Below, in pieces: positions 2,665 through 11,600 of a DNA stretch of 64,000 nt (the stretch's first letter is position 1; every line of letters starts with the position of its first letter). The position numbers were made by a program, and so were the translations under genes. Origin of the DNA: Deinococcales bacterium (lineage in GTDB: Bacteria; Deinococcota; Deinococci; Deinococcales; JAAFIG01); contig JANNVX010000014.1 in NCBI GenBank assembly GCA_031414595.1, positions 48,078 to 112,077 on the forward strand. Reading direction: 5' to 3'. Under the pieces are notes generated by a model, which did no database searches, was not told where the DNA came from, and was given only the letters and a program-made list of their open reading frames with translations.

Positions 2665-3009
2665 TTATCCAAACTTCCTTTGAACCAAACGCCAGCACAA
2701 AGTGACCATCAGACCAGCGAATAGAATCACTGCCCAACTTGGTAATTGCAGAATCACCGCCAAGCTGTATGAGTAAACCCCAGCACAAAAGGTTAAAGAC
2801 CAGACCAATGGAATTTTGGCAAATAATTGTAGAAACGCATCAAGATTATGCCCATAGTGCTTCTCGAGCAAGAATAGGATGATGGCAAAGACCATCAGGC
2901 TCGAGACAAGACAAAGCCCAATTGAGGCATTGACAGTCACGAGTAATCTTGTTGTCAAACCTCCAGCCAGAACTGCAAAAACAAGCAACTCGAGGTGAAC
3001 CCTTTTCAT
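2665..3009 (-). CDS. Small membrane protein, hypothetical
   Basis: About four hydrophobic segments; ATGA overlap with the upstream ORF. Confidence 0.6.
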   Translation of the reverse strand: MKRVHLELLVFAVLAGGLTTRLLVTVNASIGLCLVSSLMVFAIILFLLEKHYGHNLDAFLQLFAKIPLVWSLTFCAGVYSYSLAVILQLPSWAVILFAGLMVTLCWRLVQRKFG

Positions 3010-3359
3010 GGTGTCTCCAAGTTCGCCTTGCCAAAAAACCGAGTATTCATTTGTTCTCGTAACCGATGATTCTCAAGGGTGAGTTTACCAAGTAAGCGCT
3101 CGAGTAGGATTTCTTGGGCTTTTGATCGCTCGAGTTGTTTTTGTAGATTCAAATTCTCGGTCTCGAGTAAACCAGATTGTTGTTCTGAACTAATAAAAGC
3201 ATCATTACCAAAGCGTTCATATAAAGCTCGCCAAGAAAATAAGGTTGAAGCTAGGATTTTATGTTCTCGAGCCACAGCACTAGGTCGTTTGTGTTGTTCA
3301 ATGACTTCCTTGACCATTCGCAACTTAAATTCGGGGGTGTATAACTTTCGGTTTTTCAT
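3006..3359 (-). CDS. IS3-family OrfA-like HTH/leucine-zipper protein without a catalytic OrfB
   Basis: RKLYTPEFKLRMV...SAVAREHKILASTLFSWR motif followed by a coiled coil; ATGA overlaps on both sides. Confidence 0.7.
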   Translation of the reverse strand: MKNRKLYTPEFKLRMVKEVIEQHKRPSAVAREHKILASTLFSWRALYERFGNDAFISSEQQSGLLETENLNLQKQLERSKAQEILLERLLGKLTLENHRLREQMNTRFFGKANLETP

Positions 3360-3826
3360 GGTCTAGTCCTTACATTAAATGTAATCGTGTGAATCACGGT
3401 ATCTTTTGTATCTCGAGGAAGTTCAGTAAGCTCTAATTGATGCTCGTTATTTAGGGTAAAAGCTATGGTGATTCGGCTTTTGGTTAAAGTCCATCCATCA
3501 CTATTTACAGCACTTGATTCAAGAACTTGTAAAAAAGTGGTTAGAGCTTTCTCAAAGGTCGTCATAAATTGGGGGATTGGTGTTCCAAAATCATTAACAG
3601 TAAAACTTTGGCTATCCACTGAAAATTCAATGTGTACAAGTTCTTCCTTGGTGGTTACGCTGGTTGCAAGGTTTAGTTCGCTTGCTTTTCGGGTTTTGCT
3701 TGCTTTATCGAGATAGAACGCCCATGTCACTTGGGTGATCTGAATTCTTGTGCCTAAAAGGTTATAGGTGTGCGCTATATTGAAGGTGCTTTGTACCGCA
3801 CCAAGATAATCAATGGGCTGGTTCAT
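3356..3826 (-). CDS. Hypothetical protein
   Basis: 156-aa ORF translationally coupled (ATGA) to both neighbours. Confidence 0.6.
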   Translation of the reverse strand: MNQPIDYLGAVQSTFNIAHTYNLLGTRIQITQVTWAFYLDKASKTRKASELNLATSVTTKEELVHIEFSVDSQSFTVNDFGTPIPQFMTTFEKALTTFLQVLESSAVNSDGWTLTKSRITIAFTLNNEHQLELTELPRDTKDTVIHTITFNVRTRP

Positions 3827-4542
3827 TCTCGTGTCCCTAAGCCTAACTCGAGACCATCATCCAAAAGATGGTTTTCATGCTCGTTAGTTAAATTTTCCTC
3901 GAGAATAACTTTGCGTTTCATGGGTGGAATCCATTTCTTCCAATGCTCTGGGATTTCTAATCGCATTGGCTTGAGATTTTGAGCAATTAAGAAACCATGC
4001 TCGAGAACCCCAGTCATGTGTAGATACCGAGCATCTTCGACCAAATTCAGTAAATCGAGGGTGGTTTTAGCACTGACCACAAATGGTTCTATTTTTTTGT
4101 TGTCTGGTGGGTAAACTCGCAGCAATACTAATTTCTCAGCTCGGTCTAAACGGAGGACTTTGCCAGCCGCACTCCAGAAGGTATCAGCACCATTCAAATC
4201 AACGGCATTCTCGAGGGGCATGACTCGAGCCAAGGTGAGGTTGGCTAAGCGTTGGTCTTTGAAGGTCTTGCCGTACAACGTGGCTCTCCAAGTACCAGAG
4301 AGTTGGATTGAAGACTGTTCAGGGTGGGTGTTGCGCCACCTCGAGAAAACCCTTGGGTGAACTCGAGCGATGTAAGTACCATTTTTTGGATTGCCAAGTT
4401 GAATGGTGACTCGAGTGTTTTGCTGGTCATCTTGGATGGTGGCATTGGCTTGGATGAAGAAATGGTGGTTATAGTCGGTGTGAATACCTTTTGGCATTGG
4501 CTGTGGTGTGGTTACAAGAGTTTCAAAAACGTCATTTGACAT
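3823..4542 (-). CDS. Hypothetical protein, paralog of 4575..5171
   Basis: AGGAG RBS; shares WSA.G....D....LV..RVYP...PF..SA...H..G.L...LEIP..W..W with the upstream ORF. Confidence 0.7.
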   Translation of the reverse strand: MSNDVFETLVTTPQPMPKGIHTDYNHHFFIQANATIQDDQQNTRVTIQLGNPKNGTYIARVHPRVFSRWRNTHPEQSSIQLSGTWRATLYGKTFKDQRLANLTLARVMPLENAVDLNGADTFWSAAGKVLRLDRAEKLVLLRVYPPDNKKIEPFVVSAKTTLDLLNLVEDARYLHMTGVLEHGFLIAQNLKPMRLEIPEHWKKWIPPMKRKVILEENLTNEHENHLLDDGLELGLGTRE

Positions 4543-4574
4543 GCTATCTCCTATTCACGGGTTTCTTATCGTCT

Positions 4575-5171
4575 TTAGTTGGCTTTCCAGTTGCGCCAAC
4601 GATCAGGAATTTCTAAATCTTGATTGGTTAATACTTCTGCAACAAGCTTTTTGCCACTTAAGTTCCCTATCAAATGGACAAACTCATTTTTTCTTGGCAA
4701 CTCTTGTTCTACTTTCAAACTGGCTGAAATCAAAAATGGCGTGGCTCGAGCTTGCTCAGGGTAAACCCGAATCGTGACCAATCGGTGTATTGGGTCACTT
4801 TTGGTGATTTGTCCAATAGCACTCCATCGCGGCTGGTGGGAATCTTCTCGTTCTAACTCGAGGGGTTCAATACGATGTAGGTGAAGTGGTTCAAACAGCA
4901 CACTATCGTTCAAAGTGCGGAAATGAAGCGTACATAACCACCAACGATGACTTGCTGGGTTGAGCCTTAACACATCTGCACTGGCTTTAACCCGAAGCAT
5001 GGTGCTATCGGAGAGTTGGATGTCCATATTGTTACCGCTCCCTGAATCGTAAATACAAGCCGCCACTCGCATAAAAGCATGGCATCCATCAGGAATAGGA
5101 AAATCAAAAGTGAGTTTTCGTGGGGTAGTGGTCAATGGTCTGCCTCGAGCTTGGATTTTGTGACTGGTCAT
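4575..5171 (-). CDS. Hypothetical protein, paralog of 3823..4542
   Basis: ATG at 5171 with GAGGTG RBS; shared C-terminal motif with the downstream ORF. Confidence 0.7.
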   Translation of the reverse strand: MTSHKIQARGRPLTTTPRKLTFDFPIPDGCHAFMRVAACIYDSGSGNNMDIQLSDSTMLRVKASADVLRLNPASHRWWLCTLHFRTLNDSVLFEPLHLHRIEPLELEREDSHQPRWSAIGQITKSDPIHRLVTIRVYPEQARATPFLISASLKVEQELPRKNEFVHLIGNLSGKKLVAEVLTNQDLEIPDRWRNWKAN

Positions 5172-5313
5172 AAGAAATGCCACCTCTGTACACATCGGAT
5201 CGTGTTTGTTACAAAAGGTGGTGGTGTTAAACGAGATTGATTGTCTTGAACTGCCAACATGAGTTGTAAGCTCAAGTGCTGACCCTAATTGCTTGGGGCA
5301 TTTACATTATAAC

Positions 5314-5329
5314 ACCGTATATATACGGT
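5314..5329. promoter_or_regulatory. Perfect 16-bp palindrome, candidate Xre operator between divergent transcription units
   Basis: ACCGTATATATACGGT, 37 bp upstream of the xre start codon. Confidence 0.55.
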
Positions 5330-5366
5330 TCTGCTAGTCAAAGTCAACCTGTAGCCTTCGCAAACG

Positions 5367-5594
5367 ATGCCTCGCTTTGCGGTAGACCCAGAGATAATAC
5401 GTGTTCGCATTCGTCAATTACGACTCGAACAGGGTTTAACCCAAGATGAAGTAGCAGCCCGAAGTGGAATCAACGAAAAGCACTATCAAGACCTCGAGAC
5501 GGGAAGGAAAGCCTTTAATCCTACTCTCGAGACCCTCAATGCTTTTGCTTTGACCTTTGAAGTGGAACTGGCTGTCCTTCTAAAATCGGAGTAA
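5367..5594 (+). CDS. Xre-family HTH transcriptional regulator
   Basis: IRQLRLEQGLTQDEVAARSGI...YQDLETG...NPTLETL motif. Confidence 0.9.
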   Translation: MPRFAVDPEIIRVRIRQLRLEQGLTQDEVAARSGINEKHYQDLETGRKAFNPTLETLNAFALTFEVELAVLLKSE

Positions 5595-5761
5595 AACCGT
5601 AGATTCCTGACACGTTATTCGGAAATTTAACGTGAAATACACGGGAGTTTGAAAATCAGAGTTGGTCATTGTAGACCAAACAAAAACAGTATGCTAAGTT
5701 ATCCGTCAGTGACAGACTATTATAAATGTCAACGAAACCTGAATCTTGAGGTAATTAGGAT

Positions 5762-6721
5762 GTGTTTCATATGATTGAAACTGCCAAAAACCCACACTGG
5801 GCAATCCACCCTCAAATCCAAAATGGTGAGTTGTTTGAATCTTGGATTGTGCGGTTGAGTGCCGAAAATGGCTTTCGCCTGCGCGAAGTGATACAGCAAT
5901 TAGAACTCAAAAATGTCTTTTGTTCTAAAAACAATGTTGAGATCAAAGCCGTAAGAAAATTGTCGGATGCAACTGGGATACTTCAATATCGAATCCTCGA
6001 ATCCCATCTTGGGTGGCTTCAAAATCACTCTGATCTTGCCTATGCAAAAACATTTACCCTTTGGGGGCGTAGCCCATCGGACACGATACAGCATTTTAAG
6101 TTTTGCCCAGACTGTTTTGCTAATCAAGACAAGCCACACATACTGCTTGACTGGGCATTTGAAATCACTCAGTTCTGCACGGTACATCAACGACCTTTAC
6201 TCGAGCGTTGTCCAAAATGCCGCGAGCCACTTCAGTTTAGTTTGCTTTTCAACAAAACAATACAACCCGAAATCTGCTCTAATTGCAGCACAAAAATGAA
6301 AATCCATGCTCGGAAACACAGCATTGATTTCAAATTTGGTCTCGAGCTACAAAGACAAATCTTGAGCCTCCGAAAACATGACCAAGTATCACCAAAACAA
6401 TCACGAATTATCCCAGCAAAAACGTTTTTATCAATTGTTGAGCGGATATTTTATCGCTTTACCAATTTACCCAACCAGCAAACCTTCTCTAAATTGACTG
6501 ATCTCTCAGTTATGTTGCTGGATGATCGTTTTTCGCAAGCGTACCGAAGAATAAACGCCCTGACCATTTGTGGCTGGCTTTTAGCCGACCCAATAGTACG
6601 AATTATTACTCTGCGCCAATTCACGCAAAAGTATGTTGAATACTCGACGGCTATTCAAATTATTTCTGTTCTGAATTATGCACAAGCGACATTGCAACCA
6701 CGTAATGGAACTTACCAATGA
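5762..6721 (+). CDS. tniQ: TniQ (Tn7 TnsD/TniQ family target-selection protein); ATG at 5771 is a possible start
   Basis: N-terminal HP...GELFESWIVRLSAENG; FCPDC...W.....FCTVH...LLERCPKC...CSNC zinc motifs; short (about 319 aa); ATGA overlap with cas5. Confidence 0.9.
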   Translation: MFHMIETAKNPHWAIHPQIQNGELFESWIVRLSAENGFRLREVIQQLELKNVFCSKNNVEIKAVRKLSDATGILQYRILESHLGWLQNHSDLAYAKTFTLWGRSPSDTIQHFKFCPDCFANQDKPHILLDWAFEITQFCTVHQRPLLERCPKCREPLQFSLLFNKTIQPEICSNCSTKMKIHARKHSIDFKFGLELQRQILSLRKHDQVSPKQSRIIPAKTFLSIVERIFYRFTNLPNQQTFSKLTDLSVMLLDDRFSQAYRRINALTICGWLLADPIVRIITLRQFTQKYVEYSTAIQIISVLNYAQATLQPRNGTYQ

Positions 6722-7452
6722 GCTTATTTGCACTCGAGGTTTGGGGCGATTACGCCTGTTTCACACGTCCTGAAACAAAAGTTGAAAGACTTAGTTACCC
6801 TGTGATGACTCCAAAAATTGCTCGAGCAATTTTTGGAGCGATCTACACCCAGTTTTCTGGGGGTGAAACACCTCACACAACTTTTTTCTGGCAAGTCAGG
6901 CGAATCGAAATCCTCAATCCAATTGTGTTTATTTCGTTCTCACACAATGAAGTCAAAGGGAGAGCAAGCACTTACAACATTTTGCGCTCAGTTCATCAGC
7001 CCGACGCACTTCAACCGCTCATGGCAGATGGCAATGATGATTCCAGCAAAGAGACTGGGCGCACCCAACGCCAATCAATGATTTTGCGCGAGGTGCGTTA
7101 TCGGATATTCGCTGAACCAGTGCTGTACAATCCAAACCAAAGCAATCTGAAGCAAATCACCCACGAATTTGCTCGACGTGCAGCCAAAGGCAAGTGTTTC
7201 CATCAGCCTTTTTTGGGATGCCGTGAATACATAGCATTTTTCCAGCCAGTTCCGCCCACATTTGGCGTTGGCGCACCGATTTTTGAAGATATTGGTTGGA
7301 TGATCTACGATACGTTTGATCTATCACAGCCAAGCTCAATCACCATTACACCAAGCATTAGTATCTTCAGGGCGACGATTCAAAACGGTGTTCTCGAGAT
7401 ACCGCCGTATGATAGCAACGAGGTACGCAAACTAGGACTGGGAGTGATTTGA
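6718..7452 (+). CDS. cas5c: Type I-C CRISPR-associated protein Cas5c (Cas5d)
   Basis: LEVWGDYACFTRPETKVERLSYPVMTP..AR.IF.AI; TQRQSMILREVRY; GKCFHQPFLGCRE. Confidence 0.95.
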   Translation: MSLFALEVWGDYACFTRPETKVERLSYPVMTPKIARAIFGAIYTQFSGGETPHTTFFWQVRRIEILNPIVFISFSHNEVKGRASTYNILRSVHQPDALQPLMADGNDDSSKETGRTQRQSMILREVRYRIFAEPVLYNPNQSNLKQITHEFARRAAKGKCFHQPFLGCREYIAFFQPVPPTFGVGAPIFEDIGWMIYDTFDLSQPSSITITPSISIFRATIQNGVLEIPPYDSNEVRKLGLGVI

Positions 7453-9266
7453 TGCTCGAGGCTCTGATCGAATATGCTCACCGAAAACAATTGGTTCTCG
7501 AGCCTGGTTTTGCTGGCAGGCGTATTCATTGGTTAATAAATCTTGACTCTAAAGGACAGGTTCAATCCGTTTCTTTTGCAGATGAATCCAAGCGACGAGC
7601 GAAGTTGTTTCCATGCTGTCCAGACCTGCAACAGCCCCAACTGATCAGGCTGCCACATGTACTTAAACAGCTTGGAATACTATCAACACGAGCAGCCCAC
7701 TTTTTAATGGATTCATGTTGTCGTGTGGTGCTTTATCCAGATAACGATCAGTTGGAACAACATAAGACTTTTCTAAACCTAATCCAACTAGCAAGCCAAG
7801 AAGTTAGGATATTACGACCAGTTGCAAAAATGCTTTCAAAGCAAAAGGAAATTGGTCGAGTACATCAAGCCCTCATTCAATTGAAAGCCACAAAAACCGA
7901 CAAAGTATCGTTTTCGGTGGATGGAGTGGTCATACTTGAGGATACAACGTGGCATGATTGGTGGCGAAGATTTTATATAACCACAAGCTCAAAGCAAAAT
8001 TCAGATCGTATGATCAGTCTGGTTTCAGGAGAAGTTATTTCGCCTGCCAGAACACATCCAGCGCTTAAATCCTTGGTCGAAAAAAAAGTAACTTTTGGAG
8101 CGGCAGTAGTGGCTGTGCATAAAACTGCCTTTACCTCATATGGGCTAAAACAAGCCGAACACGCCGCCATGTCAGGAGCATCTGCCGCTGCCTATCATGC
8201 AGCTCTGGAAGATTTATTGAGACAAACTAGGATGGTTCATGGTACGAAAGCGGTGTATTGGTACAACCAAGAAATTCCACTACAATCCGACCCACTGGCG
8301 CTGATGTTGCGCGATGAACGCATAGATAACATCAACTACCGAAAACAGCTTGAGGATATTCTTTCACAAGCTCGAAAAGATGATTCTCGAGATGTTGCTT
8401 GCCATATTGCTGTGTTGCGTGAAAATGAAAATCGGGTCAGGATTTCATTGTACAAAACGCTGCGATTGAGTGAAGTGGCGGCTGGACTTATTAAATGGCT
8501 CGAGGATACTTCAATTGATGGTTTGGCAGGTACTGGTTTCGTAGTTGATCTACCCAGCGAATTTGCTGGTATGTTTCGTCAACGAGTTGGGGGAAAAAGC
8601 GATAAGGCACTTGACTTTCAACCACTACTGATTGTGTTGTACCAGCAGATGCTCAACCCCACTCTACCCATTGCGATGGCTCTGGTTGATTATTCACTTA
8701 AATCGGTCATTACCAGCTTTGTAAAAGGCAAATTTCAGGCAGCATTTGCAACCAAGGCAGATTTACCATTGCGACAAAATTTGGTGATTTACATGGGTAT
8801 TTTGAAAGCATTTTGCCGTCACTCAGGTGATCGAGACCTATTGCAACAACTGAATCCTAATCATCCTAATTCACACTATCAAACAGGTCGGCTCACTGCG
8901 ATGCTCGAGCGTATTGATGGGTTGAATAATCCTCCACATGTTGAACTCAAAAACCAAAGGTTGTTTTTGCAAATTATGACGACACCGAACAATATCCTGC
9001 AAGAAAAAATGGCTTCCAGTCAACGAAAGCTCAAGCGACTTGAAAGAACTCGACGATGGTTCAGCCTATACTTACAAAAAGAAATGAATACGATTTGGGA
9101 GAATCTTGATGCTAAGGTTCGGAGTAATAGCTCAGTAAAACGCCAATGCTTATTCCTATTGGGTTACTTTCAACAAACCATTTCTCAATTGATTGAACCT
9201 GTGCAAAACGATGATTTTTACAATTTGGAGTCGAGAACCTTTAAGGAGCAACATGAAACCGATTGA
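7449..9266 (+). CDS. cas8c: Type I-C CRISPR large subunit Cas8c (Csd1)
   Basis: MLEALIEYA start; AFTSYGLKQ motif; C-terminal Y..GRL.A.LE and FLLGYF.Q motifs; lies between cas5c and cas7c. Confidence 0.9.
   Translation: MMLEALIEYAHRKQLVLEPGFAGRRIHWLINLDSKGQVQSVSFADESKRRAKLFPCCPDLQQPQLIRLPHVLKQLGILSTRAAHFLMDSCCRVVLYPDNDQLEQHKTFLNLIQLASQEVRILRPVAKMLSKQKEIGRVHQALIQLKATKTDKVSFSVDGVVILEDTTWHDWWRRFYITTSSKQNSDRMISLVSGEVISPARTHPALKSLVEKKVTFGAAVVAVHKTAFTSYGLKQAEHAAMSGASAAAYHAALEDLLRQTRMVHGTKAVYWYNQEIPLQSDPLALMLRDERIDNINYRKQLEDILSQARKDDSRDVACHIAVLRENENRVRISLYKTLRLSEVAAGLIKWLEDTSIDGLAGTGFVVDLPSEFAGMFRQRVGGKSDKALDFQPLLIVLYQQMLNPTLPIAMALVDYSLKSVITSFVKGKFQAAFATKADLPLRQNLVIYMGILKAFCRHSGDRDLLQQLNPNHPNSHYQTGRLTAMLERIDGLNNPPHVELKNQRLFLQIMTTPNNILQEKMASSQRKLKRLERTRRWFSLYLQKEMNTIWENLDAKVRSNSSVKRQCLFLLGYFQQTISQLIEPVQNDDFYNLESRTFKEQHETD
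8841..9266 (+). CDS. cas11c: Predicted Cas11c small subunit from an internal in-frame start within cas8c
   Basis: AGGTGAT RBS-like sequence followed by an in-frame TTG at 8841, directly before the QQLNPNHPNSHYQTGRL segment. Confidence 0.5.
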   Translation: MQQLNPNHPNSHYQTGRLTAMLERIDGLNNPPHVELKNQRLFLQIMTTPNNILQEKMASSQRKLKRLERTRRWFSLYLQKEMNTIWENLDAKVRSNSSVKRQCLFLLGYFQQTISQLIEPVQNDDFYNLESRTFKEQHETD

Positions 9267-10218
9267 AAATCGCTACGAATTTCTACTCATTTTTGATTGC
9301 GAAAATGGCAATCCCAATGGTGATCCCGACGCAGAAAACCTTCCAAGAATAGACTCCCAAGACGGTCATGGATTGGTCTCTCCAGAATCAATCAAACGAA
9401 AGATTCGTGACCGTATTGCCCTGAATGGTATAGAAATCTTTATCCAACACCAAACCAATCTCAATCGTGCGATTTTTGCGGCGCGTGAACAGAGTAATAC
9501 CTTAAAAGACAAATCCACCAAGATAACATTACAAAACGCCGCTGCAATTATGTGTAAACGATTTTATGATGTTCGGACTTTCGGTGGGGTAATGACTACA
9601 GGTGTCAATTCAGGTCAATTGACTGGACCTGTGCAGATTACATTAGCTCGCAGTGTTGACCCAGTTCATATCATGGATTGGGGAATTACTAGAGTGGCTG
9701 TTGCCGAAACTGTCCAAGGAGCAAAAACCCTGGCTGACTACGAACAATGGGAATCCGAACAAAATGCTTCAGATTTAAGAACTATGGGACGGAAAAGCCT
9801 GATTCCATATGGATTATTCGTAGCCAAAGGCTGCATCAGTGCGTTTGATGCGGAAAGAACAGGGTTTTCAGAAGCTGACCTCGAATTGCTCTGCGAAAGC
9901 ATGTTAGACATGTTTGAACACAGTCGCAGTGCCAGTCGTGGTTTGATGACCACAAGGCGCTTGGTAATTTTTAAGCATATAGGATCATCCAAAGACCCCA
10001 AAGTGCGCCTCAAACAAGCTAAACTAGGGCGTATTCCAGCACAAAATTTGCTCGAGTTAGGCAGAATTGTTCGCATTTCTCGCGTCAATAAAGATGCTTT
10101 TCCTCGAGCCTATCACGATTACGACGTGGTTGTGGATACCAGTGCATTACCAGAAACCATTGAAGTGCTGGATTTAGATTTGTGGGATGAAGAAAAGTTT
10201 CGCTCGGCTTGGGTTTAA
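9253..10218 (+). CDS. cas7c: Type I-C CRISPR backbone subunit Cas7c (Csd2)
   Basis: [55 protein letters not shown] RBS before the ATG at 9253. Confidence 0.95.
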   Translation: [321 protein letters not shown]

Positions 10219-10390
10219 GCGAACCCTTAGTGGCACTAAAATCACCTATAGTTCGCGGAAACCAAATTTCGTCTATGACGTGATTCTTCTGTGCGATATT
10301 GAGTAGTGATCAAAAAATTAATGTTGAATTATTGGGTTCGCAGAATGTATTCCTTTTTGACTTTGTACTATGAAAAGATATACATTTACA
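10219..10390 (+). promoter_or_regulatory. CRISPR leader
   Basis: AT-rich non-coding segment between cas7c and the first repeat, with a GCGAAC...GTTCGC inverted motif and a second GGTTCGC, as often seen in type I leaders. Confidence 0.65.
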
Positions 10391-10568
10391 GTCTCAATGG
10401 CATCTAGCCGTCGAGACGCTTGAAACCAAACCCGACGAAAGGATGCACATTACGATAATCCGTCTCATGGGCATCTAGCCGTCGAGACACTTGAAACATT
10501 GCCATCTAAAGTCCAATCACATACATTGGCATGTCTCTATAGCTTTTAGACATTGCGATGCTCGAGAT
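10391..10568 (+). CRISPR. Mini CRISPR array: three 36-bp repeats (third degenerate) and two 35-bp spacers
   Basis: R1 10391-10426 GTCTCAATGGCATCTAGCCGTCGAGACGCTTGAAAC; R2 10462-10497 (33/36); R3 10533-10568 (24/36). 71-bp period, GTCTC...GAGAC hairpin, TTGAAAC end. Confidence 0.9.
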
Positions 10569-10673
10569 TTGGAACTTTACAAAAAAAGTCTTTGCAGTAG
10601 CGACAATAAACCGTTAGCACCACTACATTCTCTTAAAACCTTGAATAAACATAGGACATGAGCTAGGATTACA

Positions 10674-10731
10674 GCCTCAACGGTACTTAGCCATCGAGAC
10701 GCTTGAAACTAACCAATTGACCTATATGCCC
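10674..10731 (+). CRISPR. Separated atypical repeat plus tRNA-targeting (homing) spacer
   Basis: Repeat 10674-10709 (30/36 to R1), then TAACCAATTGACCTATATGCCC, which matches the reverse complement of 11009-11030 at 18/22. Confidence 0.88.
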
Positions 10732-10813
10732 GAATTTATTTTTTCCAAAGCCTCTTGTTCCAGATATGCGGAGGTCAAAGCCAAAAGGTTTGCTTGAAAG
10801 GAGTATTGGGATC

Positions 10814-10961
10814 ACTGACACGGTAAACGATAAGAAATGATATAGAATTTAACTCGAGTTCGTTAAACACAATGTTTATTTAGGAAAGTTCAATCAGTGC
10901 CACGGTAAACGATATTGACATTCATAAAAATAATTACTGACAAAGTAAACGATAATTCACA
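10814..10961 (-). mobile_element. Tn7-like transposon end with three TnsB-binding repeats and terminal TGT/ACA
   Basis: ACTGACACGGTAAACGATAA (10814-10833), AGTGCCACGGTAAACGATAT (10896-10915), ACTGACAAAGTAAACGATAA (10936-10955), then TTCACA ending at 10961. Confidence 0.85.
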
Positions 10962-10966
10962 CCTAT

Positions 10967-10995
10967 TTGCCAAATGTGCATTTTACGGTTAATCT
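10967..10995 (+). promoter_or_regulatory. Sigma70-type promoter of the tRNA gene
   Basis: TTGCCA (10967-10972), 17 bp, TAATCT (10990-10995); 13 bp upstream of the tRNA. Confidence 0.6.
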
Positions 10996-11008
10996 AGGGG
11001 TCGTGCGA

Positions 11009-11085
11009 GGGTCTATAGCTCAATCGGTTAGAGCGGAGGTCTCATAAACCTTAGGTTCGGGGTTCAAGTCCCCGTGGACCCACCA
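11009..11085 (+). tRNA. tRNA with CAT anticodon (probably Ile2, possibly elongator Met; not initiator)
   Basis: Acceptor stem GGGTCTA/TGGACCC plus ACCA; D arm GCTC..GAGC; anticodon arm GAGGT-CTCATAA-ACCTT; T loop TTCAAGT. Confidence 0.95.
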
Positions 11086-11108
11086 AATTATGAAGTTTGG
11101 ATTTAATA

Positions 11109-11600
11109 ATGCCTTACACTCCAATTCTTGCCACGCTGGGTTATTTAATCTCTGAAGATAATCAAAAGGTTTTACTGGTGCATCGGCATAAACGCAACGC
11201 CGATGCACATCTTGGCAAATACAACGGACTGGGCGGGAAACTCGAGCCGTTCGAGGATGTGGTCTCCGGTTTGCGCCGTGAATTCTTAGAAGAAGCCGGA
11301 ATTGCCCTAGATAATGTAAGACTGCGCGGCACAATCAACTGGTCTGGTTTTGGTAAGACGGGCGAGGATTGGTTTGGCTTTATTTTTGTAGCGCGTGGTT
11401 TTTCTGGGCAAATCACCTATGAAAATCTCGAGGGAACGCTTGAATGGGTCGAAATTTCTAAGTTACTGGCTGGGGATTATCCGCTTTGGGAGGGCGATAA
11501 GCATTTTTTACCACTGGTTTTTGATGATAACACAAGCCCGTTTTCTGGGGTGATGCCGTATAAGAATGGCAAACTGGTCTCTTGGGCATTCTCGAGATAA
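11109..11600 (+). CDS. NUDIX hydrolase (8-oxo-dGTP diphosphatase-like)
   Basis: GLGGKLEPFEDVVSGLRREFLEEAG Nudix box; LWEGD motif. Confidence 0.9.
   Translation: MPYTPILATLGYLISEDNQKVLLVHRHKRNADAHLGKYNGLGGKLEPFEDVVSGLRREFLEEAGIALDNVRLRGTINWSGFGKTGEDWFGFIFVARGFSGQITYENLEGTLEWVEISKLLAGDYPLWEGDKHFLPLVFDDNTSPFSGVMPYKNGKLVSWAFSR

Follow-up and report, generated by a model that had tools for sequence, protein, structure and literature searches.

The window, i.e., the whole stretch of 64,000 bp that was analysed, corresponds to C14:48078-112077 in the 120-contig assembly of genome G000 (4.49 Mb). It begins inside a transposon and carries one overlapping operon of the genes tniQ, cas5c, cas8c and cas7c at this end of the element, followed by a mini CRISPR array, an atypical repeat with a spacer of its own, the transposon end and a tRNA gene with the anticodon CAT (Table 1). 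The Cas8c protein was over the Pfam cut-off and scored 152 bits with the NCBIfam model TIGR01863, below its cut-off of 218.65. No Cas6 gene was present in the tniQ-cas operon, and a genome-wide search returned neither cas3 nor cas1 on contig C14 or in the element, the cas3-core matches being confined to C18, C56, C100, C88 and C96, and the cas1 matches to C18 and C82. The effector cas genes (6718-10218) sit between the two ends of the element without genes for an interference nuclease or for adaptation. Upstream of tniQ lies a small gene for an Xre-type regulator, which, judged by its position only, may have a role in the element.

Table 1. Features of the target-proximal part of the element and of the adjoining tRNA gene (window coordinates; C14 denotes contig coordinates).
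Feature	Position	Strand	Basis and remarks
Small Xre-type HTH regulator, just upstream of tniQ	5367-5594	+	Pfam HTH_3, E 3.1e-11
tniQ, short form (316-319 aa), first gene of the tniQ-cas operon	5762-6721	+	Pfam TniQ, E 4.5e-16
cas5c	6718-7452	+	NCBIfam TIGR01876, 114.4 bits (cut-off 85); Pfam Cas_Cas5d, E 1.2e-20
cas8c (Csd1)	7449-9266	+	Pfam Cas_Csd1, E 1.8e-57, 195.7 bits
cas7c (Csd2)	9193-10218	+	NCBIfam TIGR02589, 277.1 bits (cut-off 182); Pfam Cas_Cas7, E 3e-80
Promoter-like site TTGACT-18-TACATT	10357-10386	+	Consensus scan, 9/12; directly before the first CRISPR repeat
Mini CRISPR array	10391-10575	+	Two good 36-nt repeats, 35-nt spacing, degenerate third repeat
First array repeat	10391-10426
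First array spacer	10427-10461
Second array repeat	10462-10497
Second array spacer	from 10498
Degenerate terminal repeat of the array	about 10533-10575	+
Atypical repeat	10674-10709	+	30/36 bases as in the typical repeat; 98 bp past the array
Homing spacer	10710-10744	+	Bases 1-22 (10710-10731) match the tRNA-Met target
Target-proximal transposon end	10811-10961	+	Three 22-nt TnsB-type repeats and terminal 8 bp
Target-site duplication CCTAT (5 bp)	10962-10966	.	Second copy at C14:10215-10219, directly before the far end
Candidate tRNA promoter TTGCCA-17-TAATCT	10967-10995	+	Read from the sequence; abuts the duplication
Protospacer and PAM CTC	11009-11033	-	Matched part from 11030 down to 11009; PAM is the complement of 11031-11033
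Target tRNA, anticodon CAT	11009-11085	+	ARAGORN; Rfam tRNA, 72.3 bits

Ends, empty site and gene content of the element

The target-proximal end contains three direct repeats of 22 nt, identified by a repeat search at 10811-10832, 10893-10914 (91%) and 10933-10954 (86%). The repeats which the first-pass annotation had placed at 10814, 10896 and 10936 are real and represent the cores of these copies. The terminal TTCACA described there is also present, but position 10961 is its last base and not its beginning, which lies at 10956. Because the third repeat runs into TTCACA (10956-10961), 10961 is the last base of the element, and its terminal 8 bp (10954-10961) read inward as TGTGAATT. The opposite end, for which a preceding CCTAT had been anticipated, was found on the same contig at C14:10220, outside the window and 48.8 kb upstream, with CCTAT in the five preceding bases. 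The sequence there begins with TGTGAATT, eight bases identical to the window terminus, and the region C14:10220-10376 mirrors the window end with inverted copies of the repeat at C14:10292, 10323 and 10355 in addition to the terminal site. The element therefore spans C14:10220-59038 (48,819 bp), of which the window holds only the last 10,961 bases. The core 10-mer of the repeats, GTAAACGATA, or its complement occurs in 13 exact copies in the 4.49-Mb genome, three of them in the 148-bp stretch of the window and one in the far end, where two further inverted copies with one mismatch are located. Neither the core repeat nor the TnsAB sequence used as queries revealed a second copy of the element in the genome.

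To compare the junctions with relatives, the 634 bp that follow the element on its right side served as a query against 41 genomes, namely G000 itself and 40 relatives. The only full-length match besides that in G000 came from genome G005 of the same genus (96%). Its 1,861-bp contig G005:C368 represents an uninterrupted empty site with the junction at the predicted place and one CCTAT: bases 1-1048 correspond to the left flank as far as C14:10220 (92% identity) and bases 1043-1861 to the right flank from C14:59039 (95.6% identity), and the two matches overlap by six bases. This empty site with its single CCTAT fixes both junctions to the base. A TnsAB query gave no match in the G005 genome, which is 84% complete. 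With its TGT...ACA termini, multiple inverted repeats and 5-bp duplication, the element is Tn7-like.

A side observation concerns the palindrome CTCGAG, which is found, for example, at 10563-10568 and 10853-10858. It occurs 23,235 times in the genome against 972 expected (24-fold); most of the other hexamer palindromes are close to absent, with 28/64 reaching at most 0.05 of expectation and GGGCCC occurring 0 times, and the loci of the family-f1 relatives contain 1.7-5.2 CTCGAG per kb.

Just inside the far end, the element carries genes for a TnsAB-type protein of 821 aa and a TniB-type ATPase of 275 aa. The 821-aa protein showed weak matches to TnsA_N (residues 60-122), rve (523-556) and Mu-transposase_C (661-712), and on its own matched no PDB entry at E<=1 and no NCBIfam model. 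A PDB search with a profile built from this protein and eight full-length homologues of the same order (61-34% identity) matched Tn6677 TnsB (E 6.4e-13, positions 523-810) and a TnsA-TnsB construct (E 4.7e-15), both matches covering only the TnsB part. Mu-transposase_C was recognised in 9/9 members of the profile and TnsA_N in 5/9 (best E 2.2e-05), and residues 60-122 matched Tn7_TnsA-like_N with an E-value of 0.0029, below the Pfam cut-off. We read the protein as a probable natural TnsA-TnsB fusion, whose C-terminal matches point to a TnsB-type DDE transposase and whose TnsA part is weakly supported. The ATPase is a short, TniB-like TnsC, as indicated by its matches to TniB (E 2.5e-31), VchTnsC (E 3e-07) and, in the PDB, ShTnsC (E 6.2e-04). 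Each of the six transposition and cas genes has an open, full-length reading frame. A 199-aa frame elsewhere in the genome (G000:C17:43620-44132) is 44% identical to TnsAB residues 7-177, the TnsA-like part, and may be the remnant of a related element or a stand-alone TnsA from one.

The two modules are separated by about 40 kb of cargo, which includes a GAP1/double-GTPase set, an EAD1-SIR2 protein, a TPR protein, a 3,646-aa open reading frame, a subtilase and a secretin. Within it, the genes at C14:15650-22326 for a GAP1-N1/EAD1 protein, Double-GTPase 1 and 2 and EAD1-SIR2 resemble a conflict-system set.

Array, homing spacer and tRNA target

The array is preceded by a promoter-like site, which is possibly its leader promoter; because the consensus scan returned three such sites in the region against 2.6 expected, this match is weak evidence on its own. 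Type I-C systems typically have repeats that form a hairpin plus tail and end in GAAAC, and a 5'-TTC PAM. The two good repeats of the array fold into a hairpin with a 9-nt tail ending in TTGAAAC (-14.9 and -12.3 kcal/mol). The atypical repeat is identical to the typical one in its last 15 nt, i.e., on the side of the 5' handle of the guide, and its hairpin is weakened (-4.9 kcal/mol, z -0.28). The sequence at 10750-10800 shares the first five and last eight bases of the atypical repeat and is 15 nt longer; considered as a second repeat behind the homing spacer, it was rejected, as it folds no better than shuffled sequences. An Rfam search of 10000-11200 returned only the tRNA and chance-level matches.

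The host genome also contains a defence-type system, with cas3, cas7 and cas1 on C18 and cas1 on C82. The host arrays of 14 and 20 repeats are built from a different 35-nt repeat, which has only the first five and the final seven bases (TTGAAAC) in common with that of the element. Contig C101 (G000:C101:1-5153) starts inside an array of 20 host-type repeats, which is followed by genes for a Cas6-like protein (1738-2535), a TniB (2925-3917) and a TniQ of 410 aa (3921-5153), and this locus may represent a second transposon-CRISPR association in the genome.

The spacer behind the atypical repeat matches the reverse complement of the first 22 bases of the tRNA at 18/22 positions, with mismatches at 6, 12, 18 and 19, which bears out the earlier proposal of a guide directed against the antisense strand of the tRNA 5' end. 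Past base 22, the spacer is T-rich and does not match the target, so that only 22 of about 35 bases are matched. Besides the spacer itself, a search of the 4.49-Mb genome for the 22-mer with up to four mismatches returned the tRNA site and a single further location. Counted from 10961, the distance to the last matched base of the protospacer (11009) is 47 bp and that to the base adjoining the PAM (11030) is 69 bp, exactly as annotated before. The accompanying statement that the insertion lies 45-50 bp past the protospacer holds for the 22 matched bases, but not for a full 35-nt protospacer, which ends 34 bp away.

The target is one of three CAT tRNAs in the genome. By identity rules, we take the copy on C54 to be the initiator, and the target to be of the elongator Met or Ile2 type. 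In addition, a 73-nt tRNA-like gene with a CAT anticodon at position 32 and an unusual D-arm region was noted at G000:C56:3517-3589. The insertion lies 43-47 bp upstream of the mature 5' end of the target tRNA and flush with the -35 hexamer of a candidate promoter: as had been proposed, CCTAT abuts TTGCCA (10967-10972), which is followed after 17 nt by TAATCT (10990-10995). The consensus scan of 10200-11200 missed this site because its -10 hexamer matches TATAAT at only 3/6 positions. From the candidate promoter, transcripts would begin a few bases ahead of the mature 5' end, and it is a reasonable inference that the element lies outside the promoter and leaves tRNA expression intact.

The arrangement on the other side of the tRNA (11009-11600), where a NUDIX gene follows, is not kept in the genus. 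In 6/7 same-genus genomes, the match to the NUDIX gene begins only just past the tRNA; the tRNA was located elsewhere in four of these six, namely on another contig in three and 6.5 kb away in inverted orientation in G006.

Contigs from runs of two other studies bridge the junction between the end and the tRNA with at least 90% identity; since they are contigs, they show presence only, and runs X1-X4, from which this DNA may itself derive, were not counted as independent. None of the 20 runs listed is recorded as RNA. A 1,403-bp contig of X5 covers 10505-11085 with 38 differences and 5 gaps, and those of X8 and X10 cover 10859-11085 and 10920-11085, respectively. The hexamers of the candidate promoter are the same in G005, X8 and X10, where bases close by vary, but not in X5, in which the 30 bp before the tRNA are heavily altered and the flank after the tRNA differs. 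The interval 10694-10764, which spans the homing spacer, shows no change among the matches listed for these contigs. The X10 contig repeats the 36-nt unit 10391-10426 with another 35-nt spacer between the copies. In X5, the first array repeat is followed by unlike sequence, and the spacers of the small array differ between populations. These differences hint at spacer turnover in the small array (10391-10461), although the element is devoid of cas1 and cas2.

Related elements and the choice of the target site

A TniQ profile matched 32/363 genomes of the order at E<=1e-05, yet strong full-length matches to the short TniQ were obtained in only four, G000, G004, G014 and G010 (E 7e-198 to 6e-51), the next match being at 5e-17. 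All four contain tniQ-cas5-cas8-cas7, as determined by tblastn. TniQ homologues were rare: among 1.84 billion cluster representatives, only seven were found at E<=1e-30 and 14 at E<=1e-10, and a search for homologous proteins gave three proteins among 381 candidates, one of them being the query. Searches of genome contigs with Cas8c and of metagenome contigs with a 3-sequence TniQ alignment yielded pattern matches, none of which was confirmed as a relative.

In G004, the element abuts the CCA end of a tRNA-Arg gene with TTGGT at both ends, and its left flank is the terminator hairpin of that tRNA. The geometry of G000 predicted a protospacer behind CTC at tRNA bases 11-13, and a scan then located the guide on the strand opposite to tniQ, about 160 bp upstream of this gene and immediately behind an atypical repeat. 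It matches at 18/24 positions (mismatches 6, 12, 14, 16, 17 and 18) with the PAM CTC at 65 bp. As side features, this element (L054 = G004:C136, reverse strand; 5283-6075 and 6479-6555) contains an IS-type transposase gene between cas7 and the array. A further full-length copy of tRNA-Arg, diverged in sequence and oriented like the target tRNA gene, is situated inside the element between its array and its end. In G010, the array is followed by a gap, an atypical repeat and a spacer that matches a protein-coding region outside the end at 17/24 positions (mismatches 3-6, 18, 21 and 24), with the PAM TTC at 67 bp. The G014 element ends 46 bp past a tRNA-Leu gene, beyond its terminator hairpin, and TTC stands at 66 bp; no convincing guide was found in its contig, including the 218 bp upstream of tniQ. 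The best candidate in the predicted register (L055:6401, 20/28) was discarded, as it lies in an A-rich stretch and has no preceding repeat.

The three elements with a guide are directed at unrelated targets, i.e., tRNA-Met antisense (G000), tRNA-Arg sense (G004) and a protein-coding region (G010). The elements of G004 and G014 are located 3' of their tRNA genes. In the three with a guide, the PAM lies distal to the insertion, and the CRISPR-side end is 69, 65 and 67 bp away from the PAM-adjacent base, respectively. The form of the repeats and the PAMs (CTC, CTC and TTC) fit type I-C, and we infer that CTC is accepted as a PAM. Type I complexes flip out every sixth base of their guide. When the three guides were pooled, 9/17 mismatches fell on the 11 every-sixth positions (hypergeometric 1.6e-05, Fisher 4.7e-04), the test having been run after the pattern was seen.

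With these observations, we regard it as highly probable that 10811-10961 represents the CRISPR-side end of an intact type I-C CAST, the relation of guide and target included. In the mechanism we propose, the element would have been homed to the tRNA-Met site by its own guide RNA. A crRNA would take its 5' handle from the atypical repeat (10674-10709) and pair through its first 22 bases with the sense strand at the start of the tRNA-Met gene (bases 1-22), which places the predicted protospacer with the PAM CTC on the antisense strand. A complex of Cas5c, Cas8c and Cas7c with the short TniQ would mark the target site, and the TniB-like TnsC together with the putative TnsA-TnsB fusion would insert the element on the PAM-distal side, which would put the CRISPR-bearing end at a distance of 69 bp from the PAM-adjacent base and duplicate CCTAT. 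Since the guide runs against the direction of the tRNA, the insertion would come to lie upstream of the tRNA and leave the gene untouched. The ends, the duplication, the empty site, the gene content, the match of spacer and target and the recurrence of the geometry in relatives are observed directly, whereas production and use of the guide, RNA guidance of the insertion and continued expression of the tRNA are deduced from the sequence. Counting against this explanation are the match of only 22 of about 35 spacer bases, the four mismatches of the G010 guide at positions 3-6, in what would be the canonical Cascade seed, the lack of a convincing guide in G014, the weak TnsA matches, the Cas8c score under the NCBIfam cut-off and the poor -10 hexamer of the candidate promoter.

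An alternative is that the element homed once and has since been an immobile relic, inherited vertically with a guide drifting away from its target. The four mismatches within 22 bases, the lack of a match beyond base 22, the weak hairpin of the atypical repeat and the single copy of the element in the genome would agree with such a history. However, its six transposition and cas genes are all intact, and the mismatches are not random but include positions which a type I complex does not read (6, 12 and 18). Moreover, the interval around the homing spacer stays unchanged among the matches listed from the two other studies while the arrays and the pre-tRNA interval differ, and the same-genus genome G005 lacks the element at this site and gave no TnsAB match in its 84% complete assembly. 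We consider this alternative improbable. Even less probable is a site chosen by protein, with TniQ acting like TnsD in recognising the tRNA directly and the spacer match being a relic or by-product: tRNA genes are common targets of TnsD-type selectors, and related elements of the order with a TnsAB fusion encode TniQ/TnsD-type proteins of the long form (frames of 435-528 aa) and lack a short TniQ that matches, so that protein-guided targeting does exist in the transposon lineage, but this element has a single short TniQ (319 aa) in an operon with cas5-cas8-cas7, and one family of DNA-binding proteins would not explain why three elements at three unrelated targets each carry a spacer against their own target directly after a repeat, with a C/TTC PAM in register and a constant distance of 65-69 bp.

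Returning to the RNA-guided mechanism, the data allow a more detailed reading, to which we assign even odds as a whole, and under which the lineage would reveal the way type I-C CASTs home. It combines licensing by a partial R-loop, drift at every sixth base, the distance of 65-69 bp and placement outside the tRNA unit. The Cas5c-Cas8c-Cas7c-TniQ complex would license insertion from an R-loop of only about 22-24 bp, and the guide would drift exactly at the every-sixth bases which the complex leaves unread. Guides against either face of a tRNA would place the element just outside the transcription unit: flush with the candidate -35 hexamer in G000, between the CCA end and the terminator in G004 and, provided that the predicted TTC protospacer is used (its guide was not found), just past the terminator in G014. 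The partial match may also prevent stable occupancy by the complex of a tRNA gene that is present in single copy and probably essential.

Comparison with known CRISPR-associated transposons

Type I-C is listed among six CAST subtypes in a review of December 2025 (PMC12719977), which, in the part available, treats I-C CASTs as computational predictions only that may lack spacers. Nine such systems from metagenomes with TniQ beside TnsABC were described by Rybarski et al. 2021 (bioRxiv 10.1101/2021.08.16.456562), which reports them without an array, atypical spacer, tRNA or other attachment site, and the accessible text of Hu et al. 2023 likewise presents I-C CASTs without a recognisable array. 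A full-text search, which leaves most subscription journals outside, yielded nothing further on the homing of I-C CASTs. The element described here resembles the systems of Rybarski et al. in being Tn7-like and containing cas5, cas8c and cas7 with a TniQ in the absence of cas3, cas1 and cas2. In contrast to their description, tniQ heads the cas operon at the opposite end from tnsAB-tnsC, TnsA and TnsB appear to be fused, and an array, atypical repeat, homing spacer, both ends, target-site duplication and empty site are present. The lineage may nevertheless be among those nine systems.

With the I-F3, I-B2 and I-D CASTs (Tn6677 etc.), the element has several features in common: the Cascade-TniQ-TnsC-TnsAB logic, a short array, a homing guide distinguished by its atypical repeat, the tolerance of mismatches between guide and target, a duplication of 5 bp and insertion on the PAM-distal side in a fixed orientation. 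The accessible text of Hu et al. 2023 gives about 43-45 bp past the end of the target for I-F integration, whereas the insertions here lie 65-69 bp from the PAM side and, for G000, 47 bp past the 22 matched bases or 34 bp past a full 35-nt protospacer. The element further differs from these types by its I-C Cascade without Cas6, in which the crRNA would be cut by Cas5, and by its position upstream of a candidate tRNA promoter, whereas I-F3, I-B2 and I-D elements land downstream of their target genes.

Type V-K elements insert 60-66 bp from the PAM, a distance similar to that observed here. Further likenesses to V-K (ShCAST type) are the TniB-like TnsC of about 275 aa, the short matched part of the guide, the position of the homing guide away from the array (in G004) and the tRNA as a homing target, as tRNA genes beside the element are named as V-K homing targets in the available text of Rybarski et al. 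2021 (10.1101/2021.08.16.456562). Unlike V-K, the element relies on a multi-subunit type I-C complex instead of Cas12k with a tracrRNA, and its tns genes are located at the target-distal end. Because a TnsA domain is probably present, cut-and-paste transposition is predicted rather than the formation of cointegrates.

The window and the three relatives supply an anatomy of the subtype (ends, duplication, empty site, array, guide, PAM and distance), which makes type I-C directly testable as a compact RNA-guided integrase that needs three cas genes but no Cas6 and has a probable TnsAB fusion and a TnsC of 275 aa. The G000 element is moreover a natural example of a presumably guided element that landed 5' of a tRNA gene, beside its candidate promoter. 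While elements of this kind are already known, the lineage appears to differ from them in architecture and to show features that the accessible parts of the cited sources do not describe for the subtype.
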